Part shown: piece after piece, positions 30,001 to 39,000 of the stretch
How the letters are laid out: each line of letters starts with the position of its first letter
How positions within the stretch are numbered: the first letter of the stretch is position 1
Assembly: GCA_050298055.1 (NCBI GenBank)
Contig: JBNKTL010000008.1
Coordinates: 32,001 to 96,000, forward strand
DNA length: 64,000 nt
Reading direction: 5' to 3'
DNA from: Spirochaetota bacterium
GTDB lineage: Bacteria > Spirochaetota > UBA4802 > UBA5550
Position numbers: made by a program

Positions 30001-33000
30001 GGAAACGCCGATGTGATTGCCCGCCCCGCTTACTTTGAAGGGGACTTTAAGGTGACCCTTACGGCAACGGTGAGTGTTGAGGGTGCCAGCGGGACAACGG
30101 AGATTGTTGTTGTGGTTGCCGCCGAAGAAACGCACATGATAACTCAAAAATATGTATCAGATCCCTCTGTTCAGGTAGGTGACAATTTCGGATACAGTGT
30201 ATCCATCAGCGGGGATCATGTCATAGCAGGTGTTCCCTATCAGGATCTCGGTGGCTTAACTACTGATGAATACGGTGCGGCCTATATCTTTGAGCGGAAC
30301 ACATTAGGTAACTGGAACCAGGTTCAAAAACTCAATGCCACTCCCTACAATCCAGGTGATGAATTTGGTTGCAGTGTGGCCGTCAGCGGAGACTATGCCA
30401 TTGTGGGAGCTCATAATAATGATGATTATGGGAATAATGCCGGATTAGCCTATATCTTTGAGCGGGACATAGGGGGAACATGGAACCAGGTTCAAATACT
30501 TTATGCTTCTAATTACGATGTTGATGACGAATTTGGTTACAGTGTGGCCATCAGCGGAGACTATGCCATTGTTGCTGCTTATAATTATAGCGGTTCTTCC
30601 GGCGCAATATATATTTTTGAGCGGGAAGGGGGCACCTGGAATGAAAAACAAACATTTACGGCTGAATCTGGTGGTGATTATTATGGAGAAAGTGTCTCCA
30701 TAAGCGGGAATTATGCTATTGTAGGAGCTTACTTTCATGATCCCGGTGGCGTATCTAACGCCGGAGCAGCCTATATCATTGAGCGGGACGCGGGGGGAAA
30801 CTGGAACCAGGTTCAAAAACTTACTGCCGATATTCCCGCTGTGAATGAGAACTTTGGCAATAGTGTTTCCATCAGCGGAAATTATGCCATTGTGGGCGCT
30901 TTTCAAAATATTGATTTGGGGTTTCAGGCCGGTGCGGCCTATATTTTTGAGCGGAACACATCAGGAAACTGGAACCGGGTTCAAAAACTCACTGCATCTA
31001 ATGGAGGGATTAATGACCGGTTTGGCACCAGTGTATCCATCAACAGGGGCTTTGCCGTAATAGGGGCTCCTTATGAAGATGACATAAGCAATAATGATAA
31101 TGGCGCAATATATGTTTTTAAGCGTAACAACAGCGGCAGCTGGTATGAAGATAAGATCATTCGGGCATCTCCGGAAGAGGATGATGCTTATTTTGGCTTT
31201 TATGTATCTATCAGTGAAGACTCTGTTATTGTGGGCGCTCACATGGAAGACAGCGGTGCAACAGATGGCGGTGCGATCTATATATTGTATTAGGCTGTTT
31301 GCTTCTATAATATAAGTATTTCAATATCCTCTCCAACAAAATTTCTGCGGTATTCCGGTTCGAGGCAAAAGACTTTGCGGATATATATATGATCGCGAAA
31401 AACCGGCAGTTCAATTGGGAAGAAATAGTCACTGAAGCAAAAATGAAAGAAGCCGCAGTTGATCCCATTGAATTGTATAATATTCTTCAAGCAATACCTT
31501 CCGATGCCATAAGCTCCATAAGATGTACCTCTTCTTTTGATAGTGCTCACATAAAGCGGGAACTGGCTGTTATCGCGGAGGATATCTTTAAAAGTACTGA
31601 AAATTCATTAAATGATGGTTCCCATGTGCCTGGTTAATGCTGAATTCAAAACTAACCCCAACCGATAATTTTTTCTATTGACGTCTCTTTTGATCGGTAT
31701 GATCTTGTGGCAGAAACATGATTATCTTTAAAAAGGACTATTGCCTGTGATATTGACCCAGAGACCTCCCGTGGAAGACCTTCAAAAACTGGGAATCCCC
31801 TTTCAGAACAAAGTGGGTGCCTCCCGTAAAGTAAACAACCTCATTGAGGAGCTCAGTCATCCCAACATTGACTGGAAAACCGCCGTGGGGGAGATCAGGT
31901 CGTATCTCTTTGACTACATCCATGAGATCGCCCCGGAGGGTCCTGATATCCTCCCCATACTTTTCTACTTTCTCTACGAGGCAACGGCCCGGAAAAAGGG
32001 CTCGGCACTCCGGGCCTGTGAGACATTTTTCAACAGGTACAATTTCATTATAAAGAACCGGGGGGAGGGAAAAGGGGCCTTTGAAAAATTGCAGGAACTT
32101 TTTGATGAATTCTATGAGAAGTATAACAGCCTTCTGCTTGAAGAGAGCAGGCAGGGCTACTTCTACGGCAGTATCAATAATACCGTGCTTAATTTCGGTT
32201 CCACCCTGGTTGAAAAAGGGGAAGAGGCGGGCCCCCTTCTGGCTAAAATCAACACCTTTATAAAGCTTCAGTTTTTGGTATACCTGGAAAGAATAATCCT
32301 CACTTCTGAAAAGGAGATAAAAAAGCTGAAAGTCTCCCTGGCGGGGTCTTCGGTGCGGGATGAGATATTGGACCTTCTTGAATCTGTTTCAAAGAAATCG
32401 TACAGGAGACTTCTCGATTCTGTTGAAGACGGTTTGAAGAAAGACCAGCTCGGGCTCTTCGGAAGGATCCATGAAAAGCTCGATTTTTCCCACAATTCCC
32501 GGACATGGGAGAAGATATGCACACTGGTCAGGAAGAGTATCGACGAAGACGGGATAGATGATGCCTCCGCCCTTGACCTCCTTGCATACCTTATCGAAAA
32601 GTCCAACGAAGGGAGTGACCGGGACCTTCAGCTTTTTATCTCACGGACGGTTGCCTCCGTGTGCAGCACCTTTGTGCAGAAGGAGAAGATCTCTCTCCTG
32701 AACGATGTGGTGGACATGGTCATGCCTTCACTCCTCCGGGAGATCGAGAATGAACGGAACTACTATGCCGCCTTTACAACAATATACAACATCGGCAAAA
32801 CCGTCATCGAGTCGGGAAACCTTGAGGTCATCGATTATTTTGTGGACATACTGGTAAAATCAAAATTCTGCTTTCCCAGCTTTTCCGGGATTGCCTCAGA
32901 CTGGTCGGTGATCGTCAACTCGAGCCACCTGGAGAACATCAGGACCTGGATGAAGCTCATCGAGCTCAACCCGGTACTCATGGGAAGGCTTGCCGCCAGC

Positions 33001-36000: not shown

Positions 36001-39000
36001 ATCGATGATAAGAAAAATATCGCTGTTATCAAAGGCGGCAATGAAGACGATACTACCATTATCCGGGAGGGTGATTTCCTCACCATCGACGGCAGCACGG
36101 GACATGTCTACTTCGGATTTCACAAAACAAAGAAGAAATAAAAGGAACTACTCACCTTTGGTAAAATAATACTCTTTATACCTTAAATAATTAAGGGATT
36201 TAGCCGCAGATGCACGCAGATAGATACAGATAGGATAAGAAAAGAGAAAAAATTATCAGCGTTCATCTGCGTTTATCTGCGGCTAAATTTCTTCTTCTTT
36301 TTCACCTCTAAAAAGACTTGCCATTTTTAAAATGAAAACAAAAATTGAGTTGTCTTGAATAATTGTTAATGATCGGAGATGAGATTATGAGCCAGGTTTC
36401 ATTTAAGTCACCAATAGGAATCAACGGAATAGGACGAATAGGAAAACTCCTCGTCTGGTGTCTTACTGCGAGAAAGGAACAGAAAGAAATTGTCATTTCG
36501 ACCGGCAGGGAAGTGGGGAAAAGCATAAATGACCTTGCCGCTTACTTTGAGTATGACAGCACCTACGGGAACTATGAGAAGTTCCTCTTCGGGTATAAAG
36601 CTGAGAAGCGTATTGAGATAAAGGATTCCGTGCTTTATATGAACGGGGTGAAGATAACCTGGCTCAACCAGCCCGAGTTCAGGGTCCCGGGGAAGATCCC
36701 CTGGTGTGATTACGGCGTGGAAATGGTCTTTGATACAACCGGTAAGATGGTTGATCCCACTGTCTGCGATGATAATTCCCTGAGAGGGCATCTCAATAAT
36801 GCAAAGAAAGTCATGCTCACAGCGCCCTTTAAGATAAAAAGCAAGGGCGCCCTCATGCCGGAAGACTCCATTACCGTTGTGGGAGGTGTAAACTACCAGG
36901 ATTATGATGACAATAAGCACAACATTATCTCAAACGCATCGTGTACTACAAATTGCTGCGCCCCCCCCATCAAGGCCATTGTTGACCATTTCGGTGAGAA
37001 ACTGATATCCTACGCGCTGACAACGGTACATGCCGCCACCAATTCCCAGTCTGTTCTCGATTCACTGGCAAAGAGCGGGGAGAAGGACACAAGAAAGAGC
37101 AGAAGCTCACTGAACAATATGATCCCGACTACCACAGGGGCCGCCGGCGCGGTCCTTGAAGTCATCCCGGAGATCAGGGAACTGGGAATAGGTTCCCAGG
37201 CATCAGGTATCCGGGTCCCGGTAAATACAGGTTCAATTGTTGTCCTGGATATATCGGTTATGGGTGAATATGACAATGATTCAATGCACGATATTTTCAG
37301 AAAATATTCCGAAAAAAACAGCGATATAATGAAATTCTCCGATGAGCAGCTTGTCAGCTCCGATATAGTGGGAGCGACCCACTCAAGCATATACGACTCG
37401 CCTTTTACCCATCACAGGACCTCTAAAAGGGATGACAGGTACTATACCATGTTCGACCTCAATTTCTGGTACGACAATGAGTTTGGTTACGTGAATTCAC
37501 TCCTCAGGACATACGATCTCATCACCAGAAGAAGGTAAAAGGCGGTATTCCCTCTTAAATTCCTTAGAGGTTCGTATCTGTATACTTTCTTTTGAACCGC
37601 CAAGTTTAAGATAATGTTGAATGTTAAATTGTAAATTTTAAGTTATCTGATAAGGAACAGTTTCTTTAATTTAACATTTAACATTAAAAACTTAACATTA
37701 ATAAAACTCTTCCTTCGTGCACTTCGTGAGCTTCGTGTGAAACCTCTTTTTCCTTTTCTTATCCTTTCCCCGGGAAAAGGGAAAGAGCCATTGACATAAA
37801 TTAAAATTCATACTATATTATTGCATGATTTTTTCTCTGCAATTCCTCTGTGGTTTCCGGTGGAGACATGAGTAAAATGGCTTCCGGTGATTCCTACAAG
37901 GAGATAATCCAGACTCTTCCGGACATCATCTATGAAATAGATCCCCGGGGGAACTTTACCTACCTCAATGAAGCGGTCACAAAACTTGGTTATGATCCGG
38001 AGGAACTTCTCGGCAAACACTTCAGTATACTCATTCACCCCCATGATATACGGGAAGTTTCTCTGAATGAGATTATCAGCAGGTTCAAGGGTAAAACAGT
38101 TGATGACCGGGAGCAGCCGAAAGTCTTTAACGAGAGAAGGACCGGGAAAAGACTCACAAGGGGGCTTAAACTTCGTCTCCTGCCGAAGAACTATGACAGC
38201 CACAGGGAAAACCACGTGGAGTGTGAAATATATGCCCTGGGAAAGTACGAATATATCGATGATGAGAAAAGGCAGTTTCTCGGGACCCTGGGAATGATAA
38301 AGGATGTCAGTGAAAGAAAACTCTCCGAGAAGCTCCTGCTCCTCAATGAAAAGCATTACAGGAACCTCATGGAGAATATCACCGAGGTTATTTCCATTAT
38401 CTTCCCCGACGGTACGGTGCTTTATAAAACAGATTCCGTTACAAATATCCTGGGCTATGAACCATTTGATTTAATCGGCGAGAATGAGATTGAATATATT
38501 CATCCCGATGATATCAGAAAATTTGATAATATCCTCAAGGGGAAGGTCGACATCGAAAAGATCAATATCCTGAGATACAGGTACATGAACAGAAACGGTC
38601 TCTGGAGGATATTTGAAACCAGGTTTAAAAAAATTCTCGATCCTGAAAGTAAAACCATGTGCTATATATGCAATTCCCGGGATATAACCGAACAGATTGA
38701 AGCGGAGGACAAGCTGATCATGGCCATGGAGATGGCCAGGGCCGCCTCACGGGCAAAGAGCGAATTCCTTGCCAATATCAGTCACGAGATCAGAACACCC
38801 CTGAACGCAATCCTCGGGTTTACACAGCTACTGGAGAGCATGATCGGGGATGAAGAACTTTCCGGGTACCTGTCGGCGATAAAAACCGCAGGCAACAGCC
38901 TCCTGACGCTTATCAATGACATCCTGGACCTCTCCAAGGTTGAAGCGGGGAAAATTGAGCTCCTCTATGGACCCGTTTCTTTAAAAAATCTGTTTGCGGA

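Follow-up and report, generated by a model that had tools for sequence, protein, structure and literature searches.

A PPDK-like dikinase with a large helical region and a dedicated GAPDH: a candidate 3-phosphoglycerate dikinase for gluconeogenesis

Pyruvate phosphate dikinase (PPDK; EC 2.7.9.1; TIGR01828; structures 1KBL, 1DIK and 2X0S) combines an ATP-grasp domain, a His swivel domain with the motif GGxTSHA and a C-terminal pyruvate barrel. In rifampin phosphotransferase, HpeHI, CreHI and phenylphosphate synthase the barrel is replaced by a new acceptor domain and the His is C-terminal (PMC4844700, PMC12167813). The domains of this group run in the order ATP-grasp, acceptor, His, or are split between two subunits; AMP and Pi are released, and the proteins are often misnamed PPDK or PEP synthase. 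VadK (Rv1127c) and the short PRK05878 PPDK-like family have the PPDK-derived ATP-grasp and His parts and no pyruvate domain; VadK autophosphorylates at its own His and regulates the methylcitrate cycle, acting on the enzymes of that cycle (PMC13400623).

Here we analysed a window of 64 000 nucleotides from a Spirochaetota bacterium (contig JBNKTL010000008.1), in which a gene for a PPDK-like dikinase is followed by a gene for a GAPDH of a separate clade (Table 1). The dikinase shares with PPDK the ATP-grasp, the His swivel, the catalytic residues and the GGxTSHA motif; instead of a barrel, it has a 945-residue N-terminal helical region, and a dedicated GAPDH stands beside it. VadK, at about 50 kDa, has no added acceptor domain; the dikinase, at 1464 aa, carries the whole helical region in addition. 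We propose that it is an AMP- and PPi-forming 3-phosphoglycerate dikinase feeding a dedicated NADPH-GAPDH in gluconeogenesis, a reading to which we give a probability of roughly 0.45, the substrate being inferred. Our literature search, which covered mostly main texts of openly available articles, returned no description of this dikinase family and no AMP/PPi-linked alternative to PGK.

Table 1. Features of the dikinase-GAPDH locus (window coordinates)
Feature	Coordinates	Strand	Basis or remarks
Dikinase gene, 1464 aa	31747..36141	+	Helical (presumed acceptor) region, then PPDK-type ATP-grasp, C-terminal phospho-His swivel domain
Alpha-solenoid (HEAT-like), residues 1-430	31747..33036	+	Model pLDDT 91.9; generic solenoid matches only
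Conserved core, residues 385-800	32899..34146	+	Invariant residues in 157/157 full-length homologues
Four-helix bundle, residues 802-940	34150..34566	+	Invariant G826, D922; R909 in 156/157
ATP-grasp, PPDK type, residues 980-1310	34684..35676	+	1KBL E 5e-71 vs PEP synthase 8a8e E 3e-10; residue counts
Swivel domain, residues about 1330-1460	35734..36126	+	PF00391; His1398 in GGMTSHA
Inverted repeat between the two genes	36193..36293	.	40-nt arms, 78% complementary
Partner GAPDH, separate clade, 383 aa	36387..37538	+	Catalytic Cys186, His215, Arg276 kept

Phosphotransfer domains and the helical region

The dikinase gene starts with GTG at 31747 (a TTG at 31741 is a possible alternative); a promoter scan upstream of it gave nothing clear. 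The first-pass annotation had described a PPDK-like C-terminus without a pyruvate domain, and this was borne out: the family search returned PPDK_N (residues 1017-1316) and PEP-utilizers (1367-1452) and no match to a pyruvate/PEP TIM barrel family, and the protein ends 66 residues past the predicted catalytic His1398 (codon 35938-35940). The ATP-grasp retains K983, R1054, the S-M-P-G-x-M motif, R1094/R1095, E1295, Q1307 and R1309; among 157 full-length homologues K983 was found in 157, R1054, E1295 and Q1307 each in 156, and R1309 in 155. The positions that we take to be equivalent to D321 and E279 of PPDK are mostly E in the homologues and Y in the dikinase, respectively. His1398 is kept in 156 and Thr1396 in 153 of the 157, and T[SA]H[AG] in 149, as expected from the earlier claim of a retained phospho-His motif. 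The match to PEP synthase 8a8e was confined to the His domain. Family scores stayed below the curated cut-offs for TIGR01828 (335.6; 843.45), TIGR01418 of PEP synthase (44; 740) and the short PRK05878 PPDK-like model NF004531 (240; 456). Judged by sequence, the phosphotransfer parts are confirmed as intact and of PPDK type.

One could take the protein, as its homologues are named in databases, for a true PPDK in which the new domain binds pyruvate; the C-terminal half is indeed closest to solved PPDKs. We consider this very improbable, as there is no barrel and no likeness to one in sequence or fold, the partner gene encodes a GAPDH, and the host has a full PPDK of 904 aa, C-terminal domain included, with which the dikinase shares 33% identity over 532 residues, the alignment ending at PPDK residue 542. 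All five small carrier genomes, too, encode a separate PPDK_N protein (about 815-830 aa) with a strong score. A role of the module as a PEP-forming replacement was rejected on the same count.

The model of residues 1-968 is nearly all helical, and residues 1-945 are confidently modelled (pLDDT 92; 92.7 for the core of a homologue). An earlier claim saw here a conserved 950-aa helical domain without a relative. The second half of that claim stands, as no convincing PDB or fold match was found; conservation is uneven, strong at about 345-545, 680-780 and 820-925, variable at 545-680 and poor at 1-340, save for an E-x-x-H motif at 35-38 in the solenoid. Fourteen residues of the region, mostly polar, are invariant in the 157 homologues, across proteins about 25% identical; twelve lie in the core (D432, G473, R476, D483, R496, H500, K685, Y686, K755, H757, S764 and G767). 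R, K, H and D abound in the set, as would be expected of a small-anion site. Four sister proteins that have no GAPDH neighbour keep R496 but have K497, Q498, K755-R756-H757 and S764 replaced. We assume that these residues share one pocket and presume that the core is the phospho-acceptor site; the modelled solenoid is a possible scaffold.

Generic helical bundles and solenoids headed the lists of fold matches. With residues 1-968 Foldseek returned only HEAT-like proteins (TM <0.2), and the best VIA-align match was a designed repeat (Z 9.8, rmsd 13.9 over 304 residues). With the 339-aa core of homologue L077 the best Foldseek match had E 0.48, and the best VIA-align match (Z 7.8, rmsd 3.0, 85 residues) fell entirely on the last helix bundle. 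Two runs against the ESM Atlas gave the family's own clusters only, at scores of at most 0.84; the profile search of PDB sequences peaked at E 0.18, which is chance level and agrees with the earlier report of no relative there. Chains of RPH, PPDK and PGK, as well as the RIF-binding type of acceptor fold, were absent among the fold matches listed, which does not by itself prove a new fold.

Co-inheritance with the partner GAPDH

The dikinase was found in 26 of 39 genomes of the host's order and in none of 212 genomes searched in the rest of the phylum. In all 26 carriers the next gene downstream is that of the clade GAPDH; among the 13 non-carriers one has it, and there a C-terminal piece of the dikinase stands at a contig end. 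Among 301 Desulfobacterota genomes 92 have both genes, one the dikinase only (a fragment), three the GAPDH only and 205 neither; in a third lineage both are kept in five of five genomes, unlinked. In G526 the dikinase is missing from its usual slot between two gap genes. In G312, one of two genomes with no GAPDH found besides the clade enzyme, the dikinase is split over two reading frames. The module is present in about a third of the sampled Desulfobacterota genomes and in several other anaerobic lineages; a metagenome scan with a single protein added only four close loci. Proteome tables of Desulfobacterota could carry the dikinase gene under the name PPDK.

Of 80 GTDB loci, 62 have the clade GAPDH downstream, five have room for it and lack it, and 13 end inside the dikinase frame or within 345 bp beyond it; the direct linkage noted in the first-pass annotation recurs in these other samples. 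The two genes lie within 5 kb in 74 of 92 carriers, and canonical gap is within 6 kb in 46 of 76. The run gap-dikinase-clade GAPDH-pgk-tpi was observed in G345; where separated from the dikinase, the clade gene adjoins pgk in six genomes (G497, G451, G543, G424, G335 and G314), and in seven genomes the dikinase is next to canonical gap rather than the clade gene. No other pathway gene recurs nearby except the acetyl-CoA synthase (acs) cluster, which the module follows in many Desulfobacterales loci and which the host also has. This link is loose (75 of 93 carriers vs 122 of 208 other genomes; in the host's order 16 of 26 vs 4 of 13), and the genomes counted are kin, not independent. Pairwise identities of the two proteins correlate at 0.97 over 53 loci; shared descent suffices to produce this, and we do not count it as evidence. 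The inverted repeat between the genes has similar copies on seven other contigs and is probably a dispersed genomic repeat outside the system.

With intact catalytic residues, near-perfect co-occurrence in three lineages even when unlinked, and clustering with gap, pgk and tpi, a working partnership of an uncharacterised dikinase and the clade GAPDH is well supported by the comparative data. Of the interpretation first offered for the pair this part holds, and the 3-phosphoglycerate step remains the best guess. The co-inheritance suggests a step or control point of sugar synthesis that has yet to be described.

The main rival reading makes the dikinase a regulatory kinase, which would autophosphorylate its His with ATP and then pass the phosphate to the partner GAPDH, or bind and switch it, according to energy charge, as proposed for VadK. 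VadK provides a precedent (PMC13400623), and several observations fit: a 430-residue solenoid suggests protein binding; three homologues have an N-terminal hemerythrin domain; the GAPDH occurs without the dikinase (3 of 95 genomes), hardly ever the reverse; and no gap is filled, as PGK, canonical GAPDH, enolase and NAD kinase are all present. The four sister proteins share the domain without a GAPDH neighbour, and in three of their four loci a GAF/sigma-54 activator follows. VadK, however, is a truncated PPDK without a large acceptor domain, and fourteen invariant polar or Gly residues at ∼25% identity look catalytic rather than like a protein interface. We regard regulation as rather unlikely; co-inheritance across phyla is compatible with it and does not favour it.

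The partner GAPDH itself was aligned to 1HDG and 2EP7, by which catalytic and substrate/Pi site residues were placed. In 66 clade members we saw SCTT[NT]C in 64, H-x-x-T, R-[VI]-P and WYDNE in all and T[TS]G[AS]A in 50, so that the description of a divergent GAPDH with an intact catalytic site is upheld. The clade forms a separate long branch with conserved insertions, ∼30-40% identical to canonical enzymes; the host protein scores 297 against TIGR01534 (cut-off 367). A loop S/N-x-G-R (G40, R41), present in 75 of 75 clade members, replaces the N-D of NAD enzymes (20 of 20 canonical GAPDHs), which we take as a sign of NADP preference. The Asp favouring NAD, presumably Asp32 in standard numbering, is indeed missing as noted before; in the NAD fold its place is after the second strand rather than the first.

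The divergence of the clade leaves room for another small-molecule acceptor: a different acyl phosphate (4-phosphoerythronate or glycerate, for example) might be reduced by the clade enzyme, or NAD(H) might be phosphorylated for NADP(H). The GAPDH family includes enzymes for other substrates (erythrose-4-phosphate dehydrogenase models), and swivel dikinases have come to serve many different acceptors (PMC4844700, PMC12167813). Yet in two single-contig genomes, G278 and G312, no GAPDH other than the clade enzyme was found, so that GAP/1,3-BPG is very probably what it acts on; gap, pgk and tpi are the neighbours, the acs cluster being the only other pathway genes to recur, and 60 of 60 carriers have NAD kinase. 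Such an acceptor appears unlikely.

Proposed reaction and its direction

As stated in the first-pass annotation, the host has separate PPDK, PGK and Gap; two other GAPDH-family genes were found. Of 93 carriers, 92 have kept PGK, genomes of 1.5-1.8 Mb among them (297 of 301 Desulfobacterota genomes overall), and canonical GAPDH is retained in 76 of 80; hence no pathway gap calls for the dikinase, which would be an addition and not a replacement. The module as a substitute for PGK, NAD kinase or enolase was rejected (enolase, like NAD kinase, is found in 60 of 60 carriers). We set low an ATP-driven transhydrogenase cycle with both GAPDHs, as four of 80 carriers show no canonical GAPDH.

The reaction 3-phosphoglycerate + ATP + Pi -> 1,3-bisphosphoglycerate + AMP + PPi, in either direction, on an acceptor fold still unsolved and with hand-over to an NADP-type GAPDH, has slightly better than even odds in our estimate. 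By PPDK homology we expect with high confidence that ATP bound in the ATP-grasp pyrophosphorylates His1398 and that Pi takes the outer phosphate, leaving AMP, PPi and phospho-His. The His domain would then swing over to the helical domain, at whose conserved basic site the carboxylate of 3-phosphoglycerate would be phosphorylated; the partner GAPDH would use NADPH to reduce the resulting 1,3-bisphosphoglycerate to glyceraldehyde 3-phosphate. The outlay of two phosphoanhydride bonds, together with PPi removal, would drive a step that is near equilibrium with PGK and NAD-GAPDH in energy-poor anaerobes, these two being retained for the reversible or glycolytic route. One could speculate that product hand-over, perhaps via the solenoid, averts a futile cycle through PGK. 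Before PPi hydrolysis the dikinase step comes to +9 kJ/mol vs +19 for PGK in the eQuilibrator column of PMC12525153 Table 1; on the same basis, the measured-K column leaves it an advantage of only 0.4 kJ/mol.

The eQuilibrator values make the opposite direction (1,3-BPG + AMP + PPi -> 3-phosphoglycerate + ATP + Pi) favourable by about 9 kJ/mol. Together with PGK it could recycle AMP and PPi from sulfate or fatty-acid activation, or let glycogen breakdown yield more ATP. Enzymes of the PPDK type are reversible and in many cases serve glycolysis (PMC8100219); retention of PGK would be accounted for, and in some loci the dikinase comes after a glycogen-synthase-like gene and canonical gap. The five small carriers have PFK (5), pyruvate kinase (4) and glycogen phosphorylase (5), so gene content leaves the direction unfixed. 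Still, a dedicated GAPDH clade is not needed as such for ATP formation and is nevertheless co-inherited, NADP-type GAPDHs usually serve biosynthesis, and sulfate reducers are thought, in the prevailing view, to hold PPi low. We find this direction quite improbable.

Few steps of metabolism are as conserved as that of PGK and GAPDH. If the gluconeogenic reading is true, the label pyruvate phosphate dikinase conceals an undescribed trunk reaction of glycolysis/gluconeogenesis, and a second route through this step, boosted in energy, exists in many sulfate reducers, syntrophs and acetyl-CoA-pathway anaerobes; this would bear on sugar synthesis in energy-poor cells and on the fate of AMP and PPi. 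A regulator would mean a new way of controlling GAPDH. Under either reading, metabolic models that count the gene as PPDK are probably wrong, and the fold of the helical region is a target for structure work.

Comparison with glucan water dikinase and GapB

Glucan water dikinases (GWD/PWD and bacterial homologues) likewise carry a large helical region on the N-terminal side of their phosphotransfer domains; no GWD structure is solved (PMC12892837). By eye, the runs G-x-G..R..K-x-x-H..GD and K-F/A-x-x-L-G-x-x-F are alike in both. Their order is acceptor, His, ATP-grasp, with carbohydrate-binding modules, whereas the dikinase has acceptor, ATP-grasp, His; the GWD families PF22973 and PF23166 gave no hit in it at E 0.1. 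We compared two bacterial GWD-like proteins and 120 homologues: in hmmsearch against the dikinase family the ATP-grasp was the only match, hhalign with the 120 close homologues gave a probability <1% with a narrow profile (Neff 2.9), and the global score of 5.8 was reached by four of 40 block shuffles (3.1 +/- 1.9). Kinship with GWD may be followed as a lead only, as the likeness is not significant.

On the side of the partner, the closest parallel is PGK with the gluconeogenic NADP-GAPDH of the Bacillus GapB type, where, as here, the NAD enzyme is accompanied by another GAPDH that is probably NADP-linked. GapB relies on the ordinary PGK and lacks a dedicated kinase; the clade GAPDH is a separate long branch.

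The gene pair and its phosphotransfer half

Both proteins of the pair score below family cut-offs, the dikinase with 336 against 843 for PPDK and the partner GAPDH with 297 against 367. The first-pass annotation had described a PPDK-type C-terminal half without a pyruvate domain; this description holds, as the family search placed PPDK_N and the PEP-utiliser mobile domain in the dikinase and brought no further family over threshold. Its statement that the host has separate PPDK, PGK and Gap was right as well: the genome encodes a full PPDK of 904 aa, a PGK and two further GAPDH-family genes. 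The host's third GAPDH-family gene (L002:1018-2052, on host contig G000:C17) has a long branch and is perhaps erythrose-4-phosphate dehydrogenase-like.

The pair is flanked by unrelated genes, one for an FG-GAP repeat protein and one for a PAS histidine kinase, which related loci do not share. Window 21708-31293, upstream, encodes an alpha-2-macroglobulin (1789 aa), a SpoIID/transpeptidase-like protein and an FG-GAP repeat protein; an 82-codon open frame without Pfam match at E 1e-9 lies just 5′ of the dikinase (window 31389-31637). An inverted repeat between both genes (window 36193-36293) has similar copies on seven other host contigs.

Features of the gene pair, the dikinase protein and its sister family
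Feature	Location	Strand	Length	Basis
Dikinase ORF	window 31747-36141	same as GAPDH ORF	1464 aa	
GAPDH ORF	window 36387-37538	same as dikinase ORF	383 aa	
Solenoid	dikinase residues up to ~430			model
Compact core with beta hairpin at 753-770	dikinase, between solenoid and four-helix bundle			model
Four-helix bundle	dikinase residues 802-940			model
PPDK_N	dikinase residues 1017-1316			family search
PEP-utiliser mobile domain	dikinase residues 1367-1452			family search
Sister-family proteins	L115:4179-8720, L116:4810-9441, L117:5457-9941, L118:5117-9706		1494-1543 aa	

Residues 980-1460 matched solved PPDKs with E 5e-71 and PEP synthase with just 3e-10. Among 157 full-length homologues K983 was invariant; R1054, R1094, R1095, E1295, Q1307 and His1398 were kept in 156, and R1309 in 155. 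The conserved residues align in sequence with the catalytic residues of Clostridium symbiosum PPDK. The S-M-P-G-x-M motif is of the PPDK type, which suggests Pi as the second acceptor and AMP and PPi as products. The barrel of PPDK and PEP synthase is absent, and because of this the dikinase is neither of these enzymes; pyruvate as its acceptor is very improbable. A Thr two positions ahead of the His, the position of the PPDK regulation site (PMC8100219), is present in 153 of the 157.

Co-inheritance, gene order and spread

Among 301 Desulfobacterota genomes, 92 had both genes, one a dikinase fragment alone, three the clade GAPDH (that of the partner's clade) alone and 205 neither. In the host's order the clade GAPDH was directly downstream in 26/26 carriers and present in one of 13 non-carriers; the latter has a C-terminal piece of the dikinase at a contig end. 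The GAPDH was also downstream in 62 of 80 loci, with 13 ending too soon and five lacking it despite room; the adjacency claimed earlier for spirochaetes and Desulfobacterota is thus borne out. As the counts include kin and are not independent, we give no P value for co-occurrence. In a third lineage, with the dikinase in 19 of 30 genomes, three fetched dikinase loci had no adjoining GAPDH; in 5/5 genomes from this group it lies at another site.

In 74/92 carriers no more than 5 kb separated the clade GAPDH from the dikinase, and in 46/76 a canonical gap lay within 6 kb. We saw the orders gap-dikinase-clade GAPDH, dikinase-clade GAPDH-gap-pgk, dikinase-clade GAPDH-pgk and gap-dikinase-clade GAPDH-pgk-tpi, as well as a convergent arrangement with gap, pgk and tpi close by; in one subgroup (loci L141-L148) dikinase and clade GAPDH are adjacent and convergent. 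Where the two genes stand apart, canonical gap often precedes the dikinase, and the clade GAPDH adjoins pgk. Many Desulfobacterales loci have the pair after an acetyl-CoA synthase cluster (families named from sequences). In genomes G312, G404 and G221 the dikinase is spread over two reading frames, and in G526 it is missing from its usual place. Genome G345 carries clade GAPDH and pgk twice with identical scores (contig C1, near 505497 and 1778710), by recent duplication or assembly artefact.

The dikinase profile matched 729 representatives (50% clustering, E up to 0.001), and at least 593 GTDB loci match the dikinase; among the named carriers are Spirochaetota, Desulfobacterota, Nitrospirota, a Geobacter bin, Myxococcales, Bacillota, Bacteroidales and Thermoleophilia. 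Of 251 genomes from the host's phylum, 26 have the core, every one within the host's order; in the phylum of Desulfosarcina widdelii 97/301 genomes match (93 strongly, four weakly).

PGK was found in 297/301 genomes and 92/93 carriers, canonical GAPDH in 76 of 80 carriers (those searched among the 93), NAD kinase and enolase in 60/60 each, and a separate PEP-forming candidate in 5/5. The module therefore fills no gap; it is an addition to the pathway. Small carriers have PFK, pyruvate kinase and phosphorylase families. Acetyl-CoA synthase is only modestly enriched, in 75/93 carriers versus 122/208 others and, within the host's order, in 16/26 versus 4/13.

The host's own acetyl-CoA synthase/CO dehydrogenase cluster (G000:C5:81109-88651) shares 47-61% identity with Desulfobacterales proteins; acetyl-CoA synthase occurs in 20 of 39 order genomes, in eight of them with open frames of ~1100-1190 aa. 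The sole PGK match was at ~E 1e-79 to 1e-87, not 1e-150, in 11 genomes (G344, G377, G407, G481, G483, G527, G529, G315, G316, G328 and G346), seven of them with the dikinase; split genes or a divergent PGK may be the cause.

The partner GAPDH and the N-terminal half

The partner had been called a divergent GAPDH with its catalytic site kept and the NAD-type Asp absent, and so it proved: catalytic Cys and His are retained, as are substrate- and phosphate-site residues, and clade-specific insertions are present. In 75/75 clade members (68 selected by motif, seven read from the remaining sequences) the loop that follows the second strand is S/N-x-G-R, versus N-D in 20/20 canonical neighbours; by rules that we presume to apply, this points to NADP as cofactor. 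A quick tree was built from 60 rows, with every second clade member and all canonical sequences, and a branch with SH-aLRT 100 set the 38 clade rows apart on one side. In the single-contig genomes G278 and G312 no GAPDH other than the clade enzyme was found, and therefore it very probably acts at the GAP/1,3-BPG step; related small genomes have a canonical GAPDH gene with a low score (E 1e-41 to 1e-54).

A model of residues 1-968, built from 122 sequences, was nearly all helix (pLDDT 91.9, pTM 0.89); the core of a shorter homologue gave pLDDT 92.7. Fold searches with either model found no convincing solved relative, and the best E in a profile search against PDB sequences was 0.18. Of the conserved 950-aa helical domain without known relative that had been proposed, the helices and the lack of a convincing PDB match stand; conservation is patchy, with residues 1-340 and 545-680 variable. 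The two main homologue groups share ~25% identity, yet 14 residues are invariant in 157/157 (D432, G473, R476, D483, R496, H500, K685, Y686, K755, H757, S764, G767, G826 and D922). If close in space, as we assume, they look like a small-anion site; a small-molecule acceptor other than 3-phosphoglycerate (3-PG) is unlikely. PPDK parts accompany the domain in every full-length match scanned, and shorter matches are mostly labelled partial or on short contigs. Homologues P0196, P0199 and P0219 carry an N-terminal hemerythrin domain and may be under oxygen or iron control; P0159, an acceptor-domain fragment with a glycosyltransferase-like tail, is probably from a chimeric contig.

The same domain plan is seen in four sister proteins, which have no GAPDH neighbour; much of their basic site and the Thr-Ser ahead of the His are changed, with RGAH[AV] at the His. 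In 3/4 loci their gene precedes a GAF/sigma-54 activator, the N-terminus of which resembles a c-di-GMP-binding MshEN motif. This pairing of altered site and activator shows, at the level of sequence, that the putative basic site tracks the partner; the fold may also serve signalling, and the sister family is possibly a signalling dikinase.

The proposed reaction and known systems

The module is real, widespread and uncharacterised, with a structurally unsolved domain. Of the earlier claim of a dikinase acting with its GAPDH in 3-PG activation, the co-inherited module stands; the 3-PG step, with PGK kept in 92/93 carriers, is a strong hypothesis and our favoured reading (probability about 0.45). 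The dikinase would use ATP to form His-PP and then His-P, releasing AMP and PPi, and pass the phosphate of His-P to the carboxylate of 3-PG; an NADPH-type GAPDH would then reduce the product. With eQuilibrator values in Table 1 of PMC12525153, the dikinase step costs +9.1 kJ/mol versus +19.3 for PGK, and with GAPDH included the routes come to -12.6 versus -2.4; with measured-K values from that table the gain is almost nil (0.4) as long as PPi stays in place. A reversal of this chemistry, in the direction of ATP, seems improbable. Under the 3-PG reading PGK would drain free 1,3-BPG, which could explain the dedicated partner and the putative scaffold.

A suspected likeness to glucan water dikinase (GWD) was not significant in a comparison with 120 bacterial GWD homologues, and it is a lead at most. 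The GWD central domain had 1645 database matches, the best 120 of which (P0311-P0430) have bacterial or no names; bacterial GWD-like proteins (L137:3402-7106, L138:3755-6982) occur in 2/151 Desulfobacterota genomes. GWD is without a solved structure according to PMC12892837.

A full-text literature search, of incomplete coverage and without supplements, found no published description of a phosphoglycerate dikinase, of this dikinase family or of its GAPDH clade; the passages of PMC8691401 that were consulted mention none but the ordinary PpdK, Pgk and GapA. VadK (PMC13400623) is a barrel-less PPDK turned regulator; however, it has no large acceptor domain. A regulatory kinase is a rather unlikely reading of the dikinase. 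RPH (rifampin phosphotransferase) and HpeHI (PMC4844700, PMC12167813) are cases of new acceptor domains recruited to the ATP-grasp/His pair and then misnamed, and the dikinase would work in like manner to the swivel-His dikinases.
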